Source: a virus
Direction: 5' to 3' (one strand)
DNA: 40,340 bases
UHGV virus genome: UHGV-1357953
In this document: piece by piece, positions 2,790 through 18,659 of the stretch
How positions within the stretch are numbered: the first letter of the stretch is position 1
Layout of the letters: each line of letters begins with the position of its first letter
Translations under genes and position numbers: made by a program
Notes under the pieces: model-generated
Told to the model about the DNA's origin: nothing
Databases searched by the model: none
The model's input: only the letters and a program-made list of their open reading frames with translations

Positions 2790-3158
2790 ATGTCAAACAT
2801 CAAAAAATACATCATTGATTACGACTGGAAAGCATCAATAGAAATTGAAATCGACCATGACGTAATGACAGAGGAAAAACTTCACCAGATTAATAATTTC
2901 TGGTCAGACTCTGAATACCGACTCAATAAACACGGCGCTGTATTAAATGCTGTATTAATCATGCTGGCGCAACATGCTCTGCTTATAGCAATTTCGAAAG
3001 ACTTAAATGCATATGGTGTTGTTTGTGAGTTCGACTGGGATGATGGAAATGGTCAGGAAGGATGGCCTCCAATGGATGGTAGCGAAGGAATAAGAATTAC
3101 CGATATCGACACATCAGGAATATTTGATTCAGATGATATGACTATCAAAGCCGCCTGA
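2790..3158 (+). CDS. Hypothetical early protein (122 aa)
   Basis: ORF with GAGGA RBS. Confidence 0.5.
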   Translation: MSNIKKYIIDYDWKASIEIEIDHDVMTEEKLHQINNFWSDSEYRLNKHGAVLNAVLIMLAQHALLIAISKDLNAYGVVCEFDWDDGNGQEGWPPMDGSEGIRITDIDTSGIFDSDDMTIKAA

Positions 3159-11122: not shown

Positions 11123-13261
11123 TCATAAAATAGATTTCGTCTTTGTAACAATAACATCTACAAAATCGCCTGCAGATATAGCTGATGGTACTGTATCTGC
11201 AAGAGTAATCTTTCCTGAAGAGATGCTTTGCACATCTAATAATTTATTTTCAATCCCATCCGTATATACCAATTTGATATCACTGAGTGGAGGGTAATAA
11301 GTGATTGTTCCTTGGTATACATATATTTCACTACCTGAAATCGATTTCACTACATACCTGCCCCTTACAAGATTAATTTTGAGTTCAGATAAATCGGTTT
11401 TATAACAGGTAATTCCTGAACCAATGTTAGCCATACTAATATCAGTATCACTATAATAAGTAAGTGCTTTCCCTTGTTTTAAAGTAAAAGTATTTTTACT
11501 TTTCCTTGGTAAGGATGTGCTATTTTTGTAATATCTACCAGTAAAGCATAGCCATGAAAATGCAGTATTCACTACATTACCACCAGAATACACAGCTAAA
11601 CGAATTGCACTAACTGGAACCCCTTCATTATTAATCCTGATCTTAATGGAAGAAATATTAACAGCAGTGACATACCTATGGTTGGCAGAATCCCATTGCA
11701 TAGAAGAAGTTATGGCTTCTGTTTGTGAGGTTATGACATTCCCATCTCTATCTAATGCATACAGGTAAATGCGAAACGATGCCGTATCTGCTGAGAATGT
11801 AAACATATCACCATTTCTTACTGGTACATCTCCAGATTCCCATAACAACCCAAAATTCCGCATAAAAGCAAACTTAGAAGAAACCAGGTGACGGATATTA
11901 TATAAACCATCAACATCTGTTTGATATGCTAATGCACCAACTTCTCCATTGTTAGCACTGGATATAAATGGGGTGTTAGCATTTAAAGAAAACAATGTTA
12001 CTTCATCGGATATATTTTCCTGAATATGAAATACTGCATTCCCCTTGCCATTATCAGTTACCTCGACATAAGTGTAAGGCGATGGATTGTATGGCTCATT
12101 TGTATACGCAGGAGATGAAAGCCATGTAGCTTCAATTGAGTTATTCCACGTATATTCACCAAAGTTAATTATCAACTGTTGGTTAGTTGGGGATGATGGA
12201 TATCGTTCAAAACGAAACCCGTAGAAGTAATTGTTATCACCTCTTTGAATATCAATTTTACCTGCCCCCTCCATAGTTCCACCATAAAACTTATTGTGGT
12301 TATGATGATATGGATTATCAGCGAAAATGATATTATTCGTACGATTCAGATAAAAATAGTTTTCATTTATCCATCCTTTCTCAACTCCAAGAAAATGAAT
12401 TGTATCGACCTTTTTCAGGTTAAAGGTTGAGTATGCTATTGAATAATCCGTCGATGCCACCGAAGCATTATAATTTGCATATAACTGTAAGTAGTCGCAA
12501 CGCTCAATGTTTATATGCTGCCCTTTTGCCCCGATAATACGAATATCCGGTGTCGTTTCAGATGAAATACCAGAATTTCTGATAATCGTTCCGAAGTTTT
12601 GTCTTGGGTTGTTAGGGTTTGATGCATTCCCGCCAAGCAATACCCCTATTCCTGAGTGGGATATGGTAAAAACAGCATTGGTCATTTCGAGGCTGACATT
12701 ACGAAGATTTAATGTCGCCGTAATAATAAAATTACCTTCCGCTCGTAATGTTCTGGATGATTCTCGTGCATATTCTGCAGCCAAGATCAATGCAGATGTA
12801 TCATCTGTTATACCATCGCCTTTTGCCCCCCACCCTCTTACATCACAATCGTCCCTCCACCGAGATATCTGCAATTCAGGATATTTTTTAGCTCCATCCG
12901 GGTCTTCTAATTGCTGCCGTAGTTGATCAGGGTCATACTTCAGCACATTTGGAAAATAGAACTGCTGCGCACCACATGCATCATAAACAGCCATAGAATG
13001 GCCTTGCACAGTTACGAATTTGGCAATCTGTCCGTTATATACTGGATACCCAGCGGCATTGATGACGATTGGCTGTGCAACAGGAACGTGAGAACCATCT
13101 TCGTTCTCAACATAGACCTGAATCTGGTTATCAGGATTTACCGGGTCAGTGTCAATTTTACCGATATAAATTTTGCCATTAGCTACGGCTTTAAAAGAAC
13201 GCGCCATAGTGAAGAGTTGCGAAGGCATGCTCACTACAACATTGGCTGTAATGTCTGTCAT
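11123..13261 (-). CDS. Tailspike protein (712 aa): P22-type head-binding N-terminal domain, divergent receptor-binding body
   Basis: First ~110 residues ([42 protein letters not shown]) match P22 tailspike as recalled; remainder not recognised. Confidence 0.9.
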
Positions 13262-13336
13262 TTAATTTGCTCCAGATACAAGGAATCGCCGCAGCATGGC
13301 TACGGCTGGTATTTGTTGCATACCGAAACGGTACGA

Positions 13337-13365
13337 TTGTTGATTTGTACAGTAGGTTTTACGAT
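13337..13365 (+). promoter_or_regulatory. Candidate mnt promoter: -35 TTGTTG, 17-bp spacer, -10 TACGAT
   Basis: Hexamers upstream of the Mnt-like gene in the divergent tailspike/mnt region. Confidence 0.3.
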
Positions 13366-13393
13366 GCCATTCCACCCATTTGGTGAGGCATTG

Positions 13394-13651
13394 ATGATGT
13401 ACAGCAAATACGATGAGGCGCAGTTCCACTTGAGGCTTACGCACGAGTTGCACGCCAAGATTAAGCAACGTGCAAAAATGAATAACAGGTCTATCAATTC
13501 CGAAATTGTGGCTACGATGGAAGAATCGCTCTCCAAACCATCACCTGTAAGCGGGTATCGTGATGAAGAAGAGAGGCTGGCCTCATTAATCTCGGAACGA
13601 GTAAAAGAAGTTGCGGCTGAAATTCTAAGGAAAGAAAAAACCCGCGATTAA
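13394..13651 (+). CDS. mnt: Mnt-like ribbon-helix-helix repressor (85 aa)
   Basis: FHLRLTHELHAKIKQRAKMNNRSINSEIVATMEESLSKPSPVSGYRDEEERLA aligns with P22 Mnt as recalled; the listed 242-aa ORF is an upstream extension. Confidence 0.7.
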   Translation: MMYSKYDEAQFHLRLTHELHAKIKQRAKMNNRSINSEIVATMEESLSKPSPVSGYRDEEERLASLISERVKEVAAEILRKEKTRD

Positions 13652-13668
13652 GCGGGTTTAGTTTTCAT
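13636..13668. terminator. Bidirectional intrinsic terminator between convergent mnt-like and antirepressor genes
   Basis: aacccgc/gcgggtt hairpin flanked by an A-run upstream and a T-run downstream. Confidence 0.55.
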
Positions 13669-13677
13669 TATAAAATG

Positions 13678-14406
13678 TTACGCCACATTTGAGCCATGTA
13701 GTAGGTGTTGTAGTGCTTTAACGCCTTCAGAATTGTAACGGAACGCCTCTACCTGTTTGCTGGAATGCGCCGATTTATCCAGGAAGAACTTCCCGTACTG
13801 CTCAGTTTTGAGGTTGTTTGCGTTAGCAATGCGACCAATCTTGTTGGCCGTTACTCCAAGCTGCTCTGCAACCTCCCCTGCTGAGTAGTAATGCTCTTCT
13901 ATTGCCGGAAGAGGTATTGCATTAAAACCAACGAGCGGGTTGATTATACTTGCTGCCGCTGTCTGCTTTGCCTCAGGCGCAAGATTTGGCATCAGATCGA
14001 ACAGATTGGTAACAGCTTCAACCGTCATTTTCAATGTTCGCGCTTGACGATACTCAACAAGTCCACTCGCTGATTTACCGCTTTTAATGTGCGCTTCTTG
14101 CATACTTTCAAGTTGGTCTACCAGTGAGCGGCGAACGGCTTTTGACTCGCGAGCGGCAACTCGCAATGCTTGCTTGATTGACATCTCAATGATAACCATC
14201 GAAGTTTTGTTCGCTTTTTGCACTACACTTTTTGTGTAGTGCTCTCCATCCAATTCATCTTCAATTTTCTCGATGAATTTGTTATTACGAACCTCCGGCT
14301 CACCGCACTGTCTACGAGCCTGATTTACCATCTCAAGAAGGCGCTGGCTGTCAATGGTTTTATCCGTGACAACGGATCCGATGTTTGCTACATTCTTAAA
14401 AGTCAT
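13678..14406 (-). CDS. Antirepressor-like protein with KilAC-type C-terminal region (242 aa)
   Basis: ATG 14406 with AAGGA RBS; C-terminal ..AGEVAEQLGVTANKIGRIANANNLKTEQYGKFF resembles the KilAC pattern. Confidence 0.55.
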   Translation of the reverse strand: MTFKNVANIGSVVTDKTIDSQRLLEMVNQARRQCGEPEVRNNKFIEKIEDELDGEHYTKSVVQKANKTSMVIIEMSIKQALRVAARESKAVRRSLVDQLESMQEAHIKSGKSASGLVEYRQARTLKMTVEAVTNLFDLMPNLAPEAKQTAAASIINPLVGFNAIPLPAIEEHYYSAGEVAEQLGVTANKIGRIANANNLKTEQYGKFFLDKSAHSSKQVEAFRYNSEGVKALQHLLHGSNVA

Positions 14407-14444
14407 TAGGCATTCCTTATGTGGTAGTAAGGGTGTGACATAGG

Positions 14445-14476
14445 CCGCCAGCAGCACACTGGCGGTTTTCTTTTTG
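14445..14476 (+). terminator. Plus-strand intrinsic terminator inside a minus-strand operon; candidate 3' end of a sar-like antisense RNA
   Basis: ccgccag/ctggcgg stem then ttttctttttg; no plus-strand CDS feeds it. Confidence 0.45.
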
Positions 14477-14494
14477 CGCCGTCCGGCGCACCAA

Positions 14495-15121
14495 TCAATG
14501 AATCCATTCCTCGCCGCGCAGTTTTGCCAGCATTGGCTGAGCGTTCTTTACGACAAAATTGTTGGTATCAAGATTCTTCATTTCACGAAGAAGTGATTTC
14601 TTGGTTTCTTCTGACATATAGCGAGTCTCATATGCGATATCGTAAATCCTTCCTGAAAGCTCAGAACAAATTTGCTTCATTCCTGGGTAGATGTGTTTGC
14701 ACATTTGTTGACTCTTCTCCATCCACAATTGTAAGTAGCAGAGATTAACCAGTTCTTCGTCAGTAAACTGTTTTGCAATCGGTGAGCATTCTGCCTGCCG
14801 ATCCAAAATATCCAGCACCCAGCGGCGGAACTCTTTGGCTACCGGAGTGCGAGCAAACATCGCGATTAGGTGGGCACCGCGTAGTGAGAAAACTCGCACT
14901 TTTTTGCGATAATTTCCTGAGGTACTCACTTCGAGTACCTGAGTCATTCCAGCGCTAAACTCATCGCTATACTTGTTATAAATCATTGTTACTGCACGAC
15001 TATTTGCGTATTTAAGTGCAGATGCAATATTAGATGATGTAAACCAAACACCATGCATATCACGGGTGGGCACCAACTCAACTCCGTGGAAGTTGTATTC
15101 TGATTTTGCTACAATATTCAT
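14495..15121 (-). CDS. ant: Antirepressor with Bro-N-like N-terminal domain (208 aa)
   Basis: NFHGVELVPTRDMHGVWFTSSNIASAL is Bro-N-like; ATG 15121 with AAGGA RBS. Confidence 0.6.
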   Translation of the reverse strand: MNIVAKSEYNFHGVELVPTRDMHGVWFTSSNIASALKYANSRAVTMIYNKYSDEFSAGMTQVLEVSTSGNYRKKVRVFSLRGAHLIAMFARTPVAKEFRRWVLDILDRQAECSPIAKQFTDEELVNLCYLQLWMEKSQQMCKHIYPGMKQICSELSGRIYDIAYETRYMSEETKKSLLREMKNLDTNNFVVKNAQPMLAKLRGEEWIH

Positions 15122-15194
15122 GTTAGTTTCCTTGCATACGGTTACTGACATAGAGGCCCGGTTTGTGTTCGCGCACTGCCGGGCTTCACTATTT

Positions 15195-15368
15195 TTATTG
15201 GATGACAACATCGCCCTTTGCCTCAAGTTTCATCAATAACTCCATTCGATAAGCTATCTCTGCCTGAATTGACCTATGGCATCTTTTTGCTGATTCGCGG
15301 ATATGTGAATCAACCTTTTCTGTAAAACGAACCTGACGCGGCTTGATGGAAGATATCTTTTCAGTCAT
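15195..15368 (-). CDS. Arc-like ribbon-helix-helix protein (57 aa), first gene of the antirepressor operon
   Basis: Hand-translated MTEKISSIKPRQVRFTEKVDSHIREASKRCHRSIQAEIAYRMELL; position equivalent to P22 arc. Confidence 0.45.
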   Translation of the reverse strand: MTEKISSIKPRQVRFTEKVDSHIRESAKRCHRSIQAEIAYRMELLMKLEAKGDVVIQ

Positions 15369-15467
15369 TATGCACTCCTGTTTTTAAAAAACTCATAATC
15401 TCACTTTTTGTAGTTTGATTATTCACTCACACTCAGTATGAGTCAATGAATTTTTTATGGTGAACTA

Positions 15468-16109
15468 ATGAATTTTGACGATCAATTCCCATCAAGAGTA
15501 TCTCTGGCAAGACAGTCCAGGGGTATGACGCAGGCGCAGTTGTCAAAATTAGCTGGTGTTGTTCAACGTCAAATAGCTGCATACGAGGGTGGTGAGGCTA
15601 AACCACGGCTTCGGGTATTGCAGGCATTAGCCAACGCATTAGGTACTACGGCTGAGTGGTTAGCTCTAGGTGAAGGTCAGGGTCCGGGAACAAAAAACGT
15701 CATGCCTGACGTTCTGGTAAAGCAAATACCAATCCTCAAACTAGATGAAGTTATGCATTACCTAAACACAGGTGAACATTCATCGTCTAGATTTCATCCG
15801 GCAATATACAATGTTGGTGACTCTGCATTTGCATTGACTATTGAAGGTGAAGCTATGACTACAAGTTCAGGTATTAGTTTTCCCAGAGGATCGGTTGTCA
15901 CGTTCAGCCCTCTAGTAAAAGCTAAAAGCAAAGATTATGTAATAGCATCATTGGATAAAGAACAAATATTGAGCTTCAAACAGGTTTACATTGGTGAAAT
16001 AGAGACAAACCTAGTATCCCTAAACCCAATGTATCCTAATATTCTTGTTAGAAATGAAGATGTTAGTATTTTGGCAACCGCAGTTTACCTTGAAATCCCG
16101 TTGCTTTGA
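15468..16109 (+). CDS. Second CI/LexA-type repressor (HTH plus S24-like domain) with the catalytic Ser replaced by Ala (EGEAM)
   Basis: N-terminal HTH (MTQAQLSKLAGVVQRQIAAYEGG); C-terminal S24-like fold; gct at 15850..15852 encodes Ala where the G-(D/N)-S-M nucleophile is expected. Confidence 0.75.
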   Translation: MNFDDQFPSRVSLARQSRGMTQAQLSKLAGVVQRQIAAYEGGEAKPRLRVLQALANALGTTAEWLALGEGQGPGTKNVMPDVLVKQIPILKLDEVMHYLNTGEHSSSRFHPAIYNVGDSAFALTIEGEAMTTSSGISFPRGSVVTFSPLVKAKSKDYVIASLDKEQILSFKQVYIGEIETNLVSLNPMYPNILVRNEDVSILATAVYLEIPLL

Positions 16110-16169
16110 TATCCTTTAGGAAGCGACACATTATCATCTGGTATCCTGCGCAAAACTAAGGAGGTTGGT

Positions 16170-16499
16170 GTGCTTGAATGGTTTCTGTTGGCTGCATTAG
16201 TCGTTTCTGGTTTGGTGTATGAGTATCGAATGCACTCTCTAACAAAAAAAATAGGAATTCTAGAAAACGAATATTGTGCTCTCAAATCCTCACTGGAACG
16301 TGAGCAAGGAGACTTAAAAATCTCTCTGTCTAGCATTGAGAGTTCTATAGAGAGCCTAGAGGATAAGGTTGATCGTATAAAGAATGAGGATATTCATGAT
16401 ATTAAGGACGACATATCCTTCTTAAAATCTTGGTTGAAAAATGTTGGTAAAATTGCCACATCAACACGAGATAAGCTCAATCCATCCATGGATGACTAA
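16170..16499 (+). CDS. Membrane-anchored coiled-coil protein (109 aa), GTG start
   Basis: TAAGGAGG RBS 5 nt before GTG; N-terminal TM helix then heptad-like repeats. Confidence 0.45.
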   Translation: MLEWFLLAALVVSGLVYEYRMHSLTKKIGILENEYCALKSSLEREQGDLKISLSSIESSIESLEDKVDRIKNEDIHDIKDDISFLKSWLKNVGKIATSTRDKLNPSMDD

Positions 16500-18659
16500 T
16501 TACTCCTGTGCCATTCCGCTTAGCGATGCCACAATTCCAGCCCTTGCTAAACGCTGGAACTCTTCGTTTCCTAGTGCCTCGCGTATTGCTTTTACGGCGG
16601 CCTTATTTGCCATAAATCTGCGTTCAGCCGCCGCTAATGCTTCTTTACTTCCGCCAGCTCTTACTGCTTTCGTGGCTTCCCGAACTGCTTTCTCTATCGC
16701 ATATCGACCGCTACGCGTGGTGGCAATTTTAGATACAGCGCCTTTTAACCCAGCGCCAACTAAAGCACCTGCGGCAGCGCCTGCAATGCCTCCTCCAGCG
16801 CCACCAACAATGGCACCTGATGTTGAATTGGCAATTGCATTTAACACTGTTGATGTGACGTTGGATAAACCAGCATCCAGATCGCGTAGTACATTGGCAG
16901 TTCTACCTGTTCTTTCAATATACTGCTGAGGTTTCACTGCTGCTCTTGCAAGAGTGCCATATGCATCAGCAATTCTTCCAAGCTCTGAGGAATATCGGCT
17001 AATGGCTTTTACATTTTGTGGAGTCAGTATCTCTGCGATATGGTTAATTCCTGCTGCATCAGCTTTGCCACCACGTACACCATGCGAGATAGCATCTTGC
17101 AACATTGATGATATAGCAGGAACACGCTCTGATTCTGGCAGCGCGCGGATCATAGAATGGAATCCAGCAGGACCATTAAGACCTTTAGCTGACGATGATT
17201 GAAGGGATTTTACTCCATTCGTAATCAGTGCATCTGTTGCCAAATCACGCCCGAAAACAGACTCTGCACTCTCTTGTGCTGATAACCTCGCTTTAGACAG
17301 ATCATTAGCTTTCTGCCAGTCATCAAGAAATCCGCCGTTTTCCGCCATTGTGCGCATATCATCAGTAATTGCCCGGCGTATTTCCCCTGCTCTCCTTGCC
17401 GCATTTGCCTCTCCGCTACGCTTATATTTTTGCTCCGCATCAGCAAATTTCGCTCTCCATGCTTTCATGCCATCAAATGTTACTCCACCTTGATTGTTTG
17501 CCTGAACAAACTGTTTCATTTCAGGAGTAAGCGGTATGCCAGCAGATCGCTCTGCCTGAATAACGGCATTACCATTTAGCATTCTTGCTTTTTGATTTGG
17601 CATTGTTGACCGCACGTCATCCCATGCCGCGCGCTCAGCATCCTTCATCTGATCAAGATTTTGAAGAATCCTTTGTTTTATAGCCGCACTTTTTTCTGAT
17701 GCCGTTCCAGATGCGGCCCCAAATTCATCAAGGTTTCGACTTAACTTTGATGATATTTCGTTAAATGCTGCCTGATGGGCATCCTGAACAATCCCTGGTG
17801 TTGATGCCAATGCGCCTTCGGCTTGTGCAATTCCACGACTTCCAGATCGCATTCCTGGTGTTAATGCGTTTATATCAATTCCAGCAGACTCAGCCGCTTT
17901 TGCTACATCTTCGGACACATTAGCGGCCTGACTGGCAATTGACTGACGCCCAGCACCTGACTTTGCCATCCTGGAAACATCATTAGCAGAATTCAGTGCT
18001 GCACCACCAAGAGCCTGTGAAACCCTTGGCGCAATAACGCGCCCGACACCTGAAAGAACGCCTTGAGCACCAATATTGATACCACCGTTAATGGCAGCAT
18101 TTTGTGCAAAATCACCCTCCTGATTTGCAGCATCAGCAAGAGAACCGGCAATCATGTTTCCTGCGGAACCGATGTCTCCTGCGAGCTTTGCTGGCGCTCC
18201 AGCAGCTTTTGCTGCTGTGCCAATTGGCAGGAGATACCCACCAATTGTTTCACCGGCTTGCGCGTAAGGGTCTGTCGGTCGATCGACTGGACGATAGACA
18301 TCATCCAAAACCTTGGGGCCACCAAGCCCCTGGCTGATTGCATTAATCAGACTTGCGCCACCCTGCAATACGTCAAATGGTATGTTTACCAGACCACGAC
18401 CAGCCTGCTCTGCAATTTGCCCTGCACTTTGACCACCAGTGAGCCAATCGCCAGCTTGTTGCATCAATGATGGTTCTTCTTTCTGCTGCTGAGGCGGAGG
18501 GTATGCTGCATAAAACTGATCTCTTGCTTCAGCCCATTTGTCACCAGCCTTAGGGGCAACAACCTCATCAAAATATTGCGCTTGAGCCTGTGCTTTCTGT
18601 TCTTCAGTTAACGCCTGATACTGTGGAGAAGCGATAACATCTTTCCATGCTTTAGCCAT
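16500..18659 (-). CDS. Ejection / internal virion protein, P22 gp16-like (719 aa)
   Basis: Gly/Ala-rich large protein last in the gp7-gp20-gp16 block. Confidence 0.7.

Follow-up and report, generated by a model that had tools for sequence, protein, structure and literature searches.

A predicted sar-like antisense RNA unit opposite the second antirepressor gene of a P22-like ant moron

The DNA analyzed here is the virus genome UHGV-1357953, a stretch of 40,340 nucleotides (nt) that we call the window, and it carries the "ant moron" (immunity I region) of a P22-like (Lederbergvirus) prophage of Escherichia coli. The antirepressor operon lies on the minus strand and begins with a 57-amino-acid (aa) gene in the position of arc (15195-15368), followed by ant1 (14495-15121), which encodes an Ant-type antirepressor with Pfam Bro-N and P22_AR_C domains (PHROGs, anti-repressor Ant), and by ant2 (13678-14406), the second antirepressor gene of the operon. 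The 242-aa ant2 product matches phrog_1726, "anti-repressor" (expectation value, E, 7e-101), and no Pfam family; its counterpart in phage JEP4 carries the annotation KilA protein. JEP4 is the closest sequenced phage, with 94% identity across 88% of 13200-15500, and DNA identical to the window is present in E. coli chromosomes. The mnt gene (13394-13651, plus strand), encoding an Arc-family protein, converges on the operon. Opposite the start of ant2, on the plus strand at 14366-14476, we find the parts of a putative small antisense transcription unit, whose predicted RNA we call sar2.

The unit would open with a promoter, Psar2, which a consensus scan places within the ant2 coding sequence. 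The -35 hexamer GTGACA (14366-14371, plus strand) falls inside ant2 codons 12-14 and the extended -10 element TGcTACATT (14386-14394, plus strand; TG at 14386-14387, hexamer at 14389-14394) inside codons 5-7, and the 17-bp spacer between GTGACA and TACATT ends in the TG region. The site scores 9/12, with TG, and carries the sequence features of an extended -10 sigma-70 promoter: TG at -15/-14, T-12, A-11, T-7 and a -35 at 17 bp. Downstream of it, the ant2 start codon reads as CAT on the plus strand (14404-14406). With the RNA start placed 7 nt after the -10 element (~14401) and the 3' end set within the T-run, sar2 would occupy 14401-14476 (plus strand), a length of ~72-76 nt given by the promoter and terminator positions.

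The predicted RNA would end at an intrinsic terminator (14442-14476, plus strand) with a stem at 14442-14468, the core CCGCCAG/CTGGCGG, the loop CAGCACA and the T-run TTTTCTTTTT. The core arms ccgccag and ctggcgg lie at 14445-14451 and 14459-14465 and are followed by ttttctttttg at 14466-14476 (TTTTCTTTTTG ending at 14476); in the consensus scan the stem has 10 pairs, 6 of them G-C, a loop of 7 and the tail TCTTTTTGCG. Terminator-like sites are frequent in the scanned region 12500-16500 (11 found versus 3.1 +/- 1.9 in shuffles), and 14442-14468 is the longest stem among those listed there. On the minus strand the hairpin is followed by CCTATGTCAC, without a T-run, and is therefore unidirectional, terminating plus-strand transcription only. 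It precedes the upstream cistron, whose stop codon lies at 14495-14497. A preliminary description of this locus had proposed a plus-strand terminator here, a possible plus-strand promoter before it and an RNA of ~75 nt over the ant2 ribosome-binding site (RBS) and start codon; terminator and promoter elements are indeed found in the sequence, and the predicted span covers both RBS and start codon, its ends being estimates.

The sar2 RNA folds into two stem-loops (free energy, dG, -25.1 kcal/mol; z = -2.5). Within the 5' stem-loop (14402-14439, plus strand), which GUC/GAC pairing closes, lies the anti-Shine-Dalgarno UUCCUU (14414-14419). The predicted target of the RNA on the operon mRNA (14404-14419, minus strand) comprises the Shine-Dalgarno sequence TAAGGAA (14419-14413) and the ATG (14406-14404) of ant2; complementarity to the ant2 leader is automatic, because the RNA is cis-encoded. 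A similar 5' stem-loop appears in individual folds of the other ant2-type leaders tested, of P22 sar and of sar1, the element opposite ant1 described below, and is less clear in the Proteus locus L085. No plus-strand open reading frame (ORF) of note lies within the predicted RNA. A coding reading was rejected: sar2 holds only AUG-UGG-UAG, and a 29-aa ORF at 14354-14443 begins upstream of the promoter.

To place these elements in a comparative frame, we collected 98 loci encoding relatives of ant2, plus 80 more loci of ORF6N type. In phage SPN3UB and some E. coli prophages, the gene after Ant encodes an ORF6N-domain protein to which ant2 shows no pairwise similarity by BLASTP; the SPN3UB protein has a secondary match to phrog_1726 (E 8e-21), and a remote relation of the two proteins is conceivable. 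All 80 ORF6N-type loci carry T(C/G)GACA-17-TGcTA(A/C/G)ATT in the first codons of this gene and a hairpin with a T-run upstream of its RBS, the SPN3UB version of the promoter-like sequence being TCGACA-17-TGcTACATT.

From 161 of the related loci we obtained 64 distinct leaders, 24 of ant2 type and 40 of ORF6N type, and found that nnGACA-17-TGnTAnnnT is kept in 64/64, even where the encoded amino acid changes and at wobble positions. No variation occurs in GACA, in TG or at -10 positions 1, 2, 4 and 6, whereas hexamer positions 3 and 5, like the spacer and the discriminator, are variable; GTGACA itself is unchanged in all 24 ant2-type leaders, and its nnGACA equivalent is present in all 40 of ORF6N type. 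The same constraint is visible codon by codon in 11 ant2 representatives whose proteins are 61-100% identical. At codon 6, where the residue changes between Val and Leu, only GTA and TTA occur; codons 7 and 13 are GCA and GTC throughout; and codon 12 ends in T in every case, whether it encodes V, I, S or, in Proteus, A. The wobble bases of codons 10, 11 and 14, by contrast, vary. Read on the opposite strand, the fixed bases correspond exactly to T-12, A-11, the TG motif and the -35 hexamer. Across these representatives, synonymous differences amount to 0.14 in ant2 codons 1-12 versus 0.47 over the whole gene. Such a pattern of conserved bases is what a working sigma-70 promoter, rather than a protein motif, would be expected to leave, and at the level of aligned leaders it shows selection acting on exactly the bases that would define the promoter across the 161 loci.

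These data bear on a simpler explanation, in which the hairpin and T-run serve as an insulator that keeps stray plus-strand transcription (mnt read-through or spurious promoters in ant2) from reaching ant1 or the operon promoter, and the "promoter" is non-functional. The terminator is the strongest feature of the unit and its most widely shared part, it is also present behind Ant genes that have different downstream genes, as in SPN3UB, and the promoter match taken alone is at chance level, all as an insulator would have it. The invariance of the promoter bases in every leader, at a fixed 17-bp spacing of variable sequence, is not accounted for by this explanation, and the ORF6N gene downstream of Ant in SPN3UB has the promoter-like sequence in its first codons as well. 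Nor is another conserved source of transcription apparent: an antisense-strand scan of 12 divergent ant2 genes gave one promoter-like site in 12/12, at the same position, with no other conserved antisense promoter in ant2 to feed the terminator, and mnt has a terminator of its own. A second plus-strand promoter-like site in the window (13922-13950), which could potentially feed the terminator, is present in 0/11 divergent relatives and was treated as a chance match. We consider an insulator without a promoter unlikely.

The terminator shows its own signature of constraint. Among 48 distinct hairpin regions from 158 of the loci, a GC-rich hairpin followed by a T-run on the antisense strand is present in 48/48. 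When 36 distinct hairpins were aligned to look for covariation, pairing held in 96.7% of cells and both sides had changed in 5 of the 10 stem pairs; none of 500 shuffles reached the observed stem pairing and covariation, and shifting the partner columns abolished the signal. The compensated changes include CAG/CTG to CAA/TTG, an A-U replacement, in Erwinia phage Midgardsormr38, and GCCGCCAG/CTGGCGGC to GCCGGTAG/CTACCGGC in the ORF6N class, and Proteus faecis has a different stem sequence of the same shape with the T-run kept. Together, these comparisons show selection on the putative terminator across the 158 loci.

A paired stem could also act on the other strand, as an mRNA-processing or mRNA-stabilizing structure or an attenuator between ant1 and ant2. 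The window stem folds equally well on minus-strand RNA (-14.8 versus -14.9 kcal/mol), and the ant2 leader on the mRNA folds too, with its Shine-Dalgarno sequence in a stem. The T-run, however, is always on the plus-strand 3' side of the hairpin, and the hairpin is more stable on the antisense-RNA strand in 23/36 variants (Wilcoxon p = 0.008, without correction for relatedness), an effect of the G-U pairs in several of them; those of the ORF6N-type stems become A-C mismatches on the sense RNA. A function confined to the sense strand would also leave the conserved promoter unexplained, and we regard it as decidedly unlikely, although a sense-strand structure could coexist with an antisense unit. 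Intrinsic termination of the operon transcript between ant1 and ant2 was rejected, as that strand has no U-run.

The hairpin also appears to be a joint for exchanging antirepressor gene modules. SPN3UB-type siphophages match the window only from 14444 rightward, some E. coli prophages match it only up to 14472-14473, and Ant genes of many types are joined to ant2 at the hairpin. It might therefore be proposed that the stem is mainly a recombination joint in DNA, a "boundary" or linker kept as a crossover site. Crossover needs sequence identity and not pairing, yet the stem shows compensatory double changes, and the Proteus hairpin keeps shape and T-run with another stem sequence; the promoter footprint, too, would go unexplained. 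As the principal reason for conservation, a joint is highly unlikely. Mosaic joints at conserved regulatory elements are expected anyway, and exchange at this site is compatible, and may coexist, with an antisense unit.

We next consider how sar2 relates to the known sar family. The Rfam sar model RF00262 gives no match in the window at its gathering threshold (43 bits), nor at E <= 10 in 13200-15600, although it gives 97.8 bits on P22 sar and 27-84 bits opposite or upstream of ant1 homologues in many related loci; it never matches at the ant2 position of related loci. More broadly, Rfam searches of the whole window (gathering thresholds) and of 13200-15600 (E <= 10) returned chance-level matches only, such as SgrS at 13 bits (14380-14473). 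We then built a broadened sar covariance model from P22 sar and nine relatives (R1) and a reciprocal model from ant2-type leaders only (R2). R1 gives no match at 14401-14476 (E <= 10). R2 scores 92.3 bits on the window ant2 element, one of its own training sequences, and finds ORF6N-type leaders outside its training set at ~31-46 bits (E 1e-7 to 2e-4), with 45.2 bits for SPN3UB, 46.0 for L151, 44.9 for L167, 44.1 for L165, 41.8 for L175, 35.8 for L104 and 30.6 for L113; it matches neither P22 sar nor the window sar1. Homology of the ant2 element to P22 sar was thus rejected on the results of R1 and the reciprocal R2; the element resembles sar in its architecture but falls outside the sar sequence family.

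By contrast, R1 identifies a true P22 sar homologue elsewhere in the operon, one absent from the preliminary description. This element, sar1 (15123-15195, plus strand; 40.2 bits, E 3e-7), lies below RF00262 detection, opposite the ant1 RBS at the junction of the arc-position gene and ant1. It has an extended -10 TGcTACAAT at 15107-15115, inside the first ant1 codons, and a stable fold (dG -35.1 kcal/mol, z -5.7). The operon thus carries two predicted antisense units in tandem, one per antirepressor cistron. About 80 ant2 loci likewise carry both a sar-family element at the ant1 start and a sar2-type element at ant2, and operons of this type normally have two units in tandem. The Ant gene upstream is highly variable, including Bro-N types and, in locus L011, P22 Ant itself, whereas the ant2 unit persists. 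In loci L070-L073, the ant2 body has a different leader (GTG start; homologue from about 1492) and the promoter-terminator unit is absent: the hairpin is weak (-9.3 kcal/mol, z +0.7) and has no T-run, and the upstream neighbor is unlike Ant-type genes as judged by eye, with no family search made. Presence of the unit is therefore tied to the leader and to the place in the operon rather than to the protein body.

Other loci in the collection show further variation. R1 gives extra sar-family matches downstream of the ant2 homologue in L081 (3171-3241, minus strand, 73.6 bits) and L043 (3160-3231, plus strand, 44.2 bits), a hint of either a neighboring second operon or a third antirepressor cistron served by an antisense RNA of its own. 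Klebsiella phage phiKp_30 (L002, 3445-3560) keeps ant2, the antisense unit and ~40 bp of the ant1 3' end, with the remainder of ant1 replaced by unrelated DNA, a remnant of the two-gene arrangement. L070 contains two Rfam sRNA-Xcc1 matches above threshold (2408-2496 and 2947-3032).

Taken together, we propose, with a probability of about 0.75, that 14366-14476 on the plus strand is a self-contained transcription unit making a sar-like cis-antisense RNA that silences ant2 translation. An extended -10 sigma-70 promoter in ant2 codons 5-14 would start the RNA, and the intrinsic terminator ~40 nt after the predicted start would end it at ~75 nt, with two stem-loops. The RNA would be complementary throughout to the stretch of the ant2 leader between about -70 and +6 and, by analogy with P22 sar, would pair with the operon mRNA over the Shine-Dalgarno sequence and start codon and block ant2 translation; the duplex might also be cleaved. 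sar1 would do the same for ant1, giving each antirepressor cistron its own antisense silencer.

Several observations weigh against this proposal. Promoter-like matches are not enriched in the scanned region (10 found versus 9.1 +/- 3.0 expected), and the Psar2 match in this single sequence is no better than chance and could be a chance occurrence; it is therefore not evidence alone, and the case for the site is carried by the comparative data. Close relationships among many of the 161 loci mean that their counts do not represent independent events. Synonymous diversity is also low in two other stretches of ant2, and near translation starts synonymous variation is often reduced for other reasons. 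The window-class stem folds equally well on both strands, and direction therefore rests on the T-run. Consensus folding of 17 ant2-type leaders recovers the terminator helix only; covariation of the 5' stem-loop is not demonstrable there, because the alignment is unreliable in that part. Finally, neither the Rfam sar model nor R1 recognizes the ant2 element.

A possible reason for the antisense arrangement lies in the surroundings of the operon. The antirepressor operon has the same strand as the flanking late genes, a DNA-transfer gene (16500-18659, minus strand) and the tailspike gene (11123-13261, minus strand), and lying inside the late operon it would be traversed by transcripts from the late promoter. 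Such read-through would escape a repressor at the operon's own promoter, for which a consensus scan gives a candidate upstream of the arc-position gene (TTGACT-17-AATAAT, 15446-15418, minus strand), and silencing would therefore be possible at the translation level only. This position is a plausible reason for one RNA per cistron. A broader proposal, which we regard as evenly poised, is that the unit is a portable antisense cassette, consisting of promoter-bearing leader codons (MT-x-x-N-V/L-A...), 5' untranslated region and terminator, which has been fused to at least two antirepressor-like bodies without pairwise similarity; every antirepressor cistron in the path of late transcription would need its own RNA, one per cistron, and the units would form a new, widespread family absent from Rfam. 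The sar2-type unit is found at >150 loci and in 84 of 5426 complete E. coli genomes.

Antirepressors decide between prophage silence and induction, and their tight control matters for phage biology, for prophage-encoded traits and for prophage cross-induction. If sar2 is real, phages with a pair of antirepressor genes apply the one-RNA solution of P22 to each cistron separately, using an RNA family that lies outside current RNA libraries, and the puzzling synonymous-site conservation at the 5' end of ant2-type genes is accounted for. The comparison also yields an annotation rule for many enterobacterial prophages, nnGACA-17-TGnTAnnnT in the first codons together with an upstream antisense terminator. 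The mechanism would be a familiar one; what merits recording is the duplication per cistron, the portable leader cassette and the lack of such a family in Rfam.

The remaining features of the locus complete the picture. The arc-position gene belongs to phrog_10182, of unknown function, and has no Arc match in Pfam, only a weak, sub-threshold ParD-like one; the E. coli HS-type ant moron appears to lack arc, according to the epsilon34 genome paper (PMC2629481). A bidirectional terminator-like hairpin, AAACCCGC...GCGGGTTT (13638-13659, both strands), has T-runs on both strands and is common to the converging ant2 and mnt genes, in line with the earlier expectation that mnt transcription stops at its own terminator; several Rfam small-RNA and leader models match this hairpin at chance level. 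Divergent from the antirepressor operon and inside the ant moron lies a LexA/C2-like repressor gene (15468-16109, plus strand; HTH_3 and Peptidase_S24), which occupies the place that mnt has in P22, the window mnt being at the other end of the operon and converging on it. This points to control of the antirepressor operon by a repressor that is self-cleaving and SOS-responsive. The T-run and the ant1 stop codon flank a perfect palindrome, GCGCCGTCCGGCGC (14478-14491), which is probably not functional, because it is broken in many close relatives (e.g., GCGCCGTCCTGTGC).

Our literature searches on a second sar-like RNA or on antisense RNAs in "ant morons" returned descriptions of P22 and epsilon34 only, and we found no prior description of the ant2 element. 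Silencing of an antirepressor by a small RNA is known from the c4 antisense RNA of P1 and P7 (immI), which acts on ant at the level of translation. It is released by processing from the transcript that also carries its target, and it works in trans, at short complementary sites upstream of icd-ant; the sar2 candidate, by contrast, would be a cis-antisense unit transcribed from a convergent promoter of its own. Short cis-antisense RNAs with intrinsic terminators also include lambda OOP RNA and type I antitoxin RNAs such as SymR. SymR, too, covers an RBS, and the targets and biology of OOP and SymR differ from those of sar2. The Rfam SymR model gives a chance-level match (21.8 bits versus a gathering score of 61), and this falls on sar1, not sar2. 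Within the operon, sar1 and sar2 have the same strand, architecture and TGcTACA -10 core, and both have TTCCTT and TGACATAG before the terminator, whereas their terminator stems differ: GAGGCCCGG.../...CCGGGCUUC in sar1 versus GGCCGCCAG/CUGGCGGUU in sar2.

The closest parallel is P22 sar itself, whose regulatory role has been demonstrated (Liao et al. 1987; Wu et al. 1987; both cited in PMC2629481) and which has been detected by small-RNA sequencing of infected cells (PMC13397905). In the annotation of the P22 RefSeq record, sar occupies 15021-15090, its terminator 15021-15058 and its promoter 15097-15125, the last corresponding to ant codons 3-12, with ant starting at 15091; the promoter reads GTGTTA-17-TGcTATACT. 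The preliminary description had likened the ant2 element to this arrangement, and in geometry the two are equal, whereas in sequence they are not homologous, as the misses by RF00262, R1 and R2 indicate. P22 sar and the predicted sar2 are both cis-encoded, non-coding and about 70 nt long, with two stem-loops of which the 3' one is an intrinsic terminator. Each has its promoter, for sar2 as judged by sequence, in the first antirepressor codons, directed against operon transcription and back across the leader, and each is complementary to the antirepressor RBS and placed between that cistron and the preceding one in the ant moron. They differ in that the sar2 -10 element is two codons deeper than that of P22 and the predicted RNA starts 3 nt inside the coding sequence, covering the ATG, whereas the P22 RNA starts next to it, and in that the sar2 -35 hexamer (GTGACA) is nearer consensus than that of P22 sar (GTGTTA). 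Unlike P22 sar, sar2 would target a second cistron outside the Ant family, and it coexists with a true sar in the same operon. All three elements nevertheless share the extended -10 TGcTA(C/T)A(T/A/C)T (TGcTATACT in P22 sar, TGcTACAAT in sar1 and TGcTACATT in sar2) and a common predicted fold, in which the extreme 5' end pairs with a TGAC motif to close a 5' stem-loop and the terminator hairpin follows.

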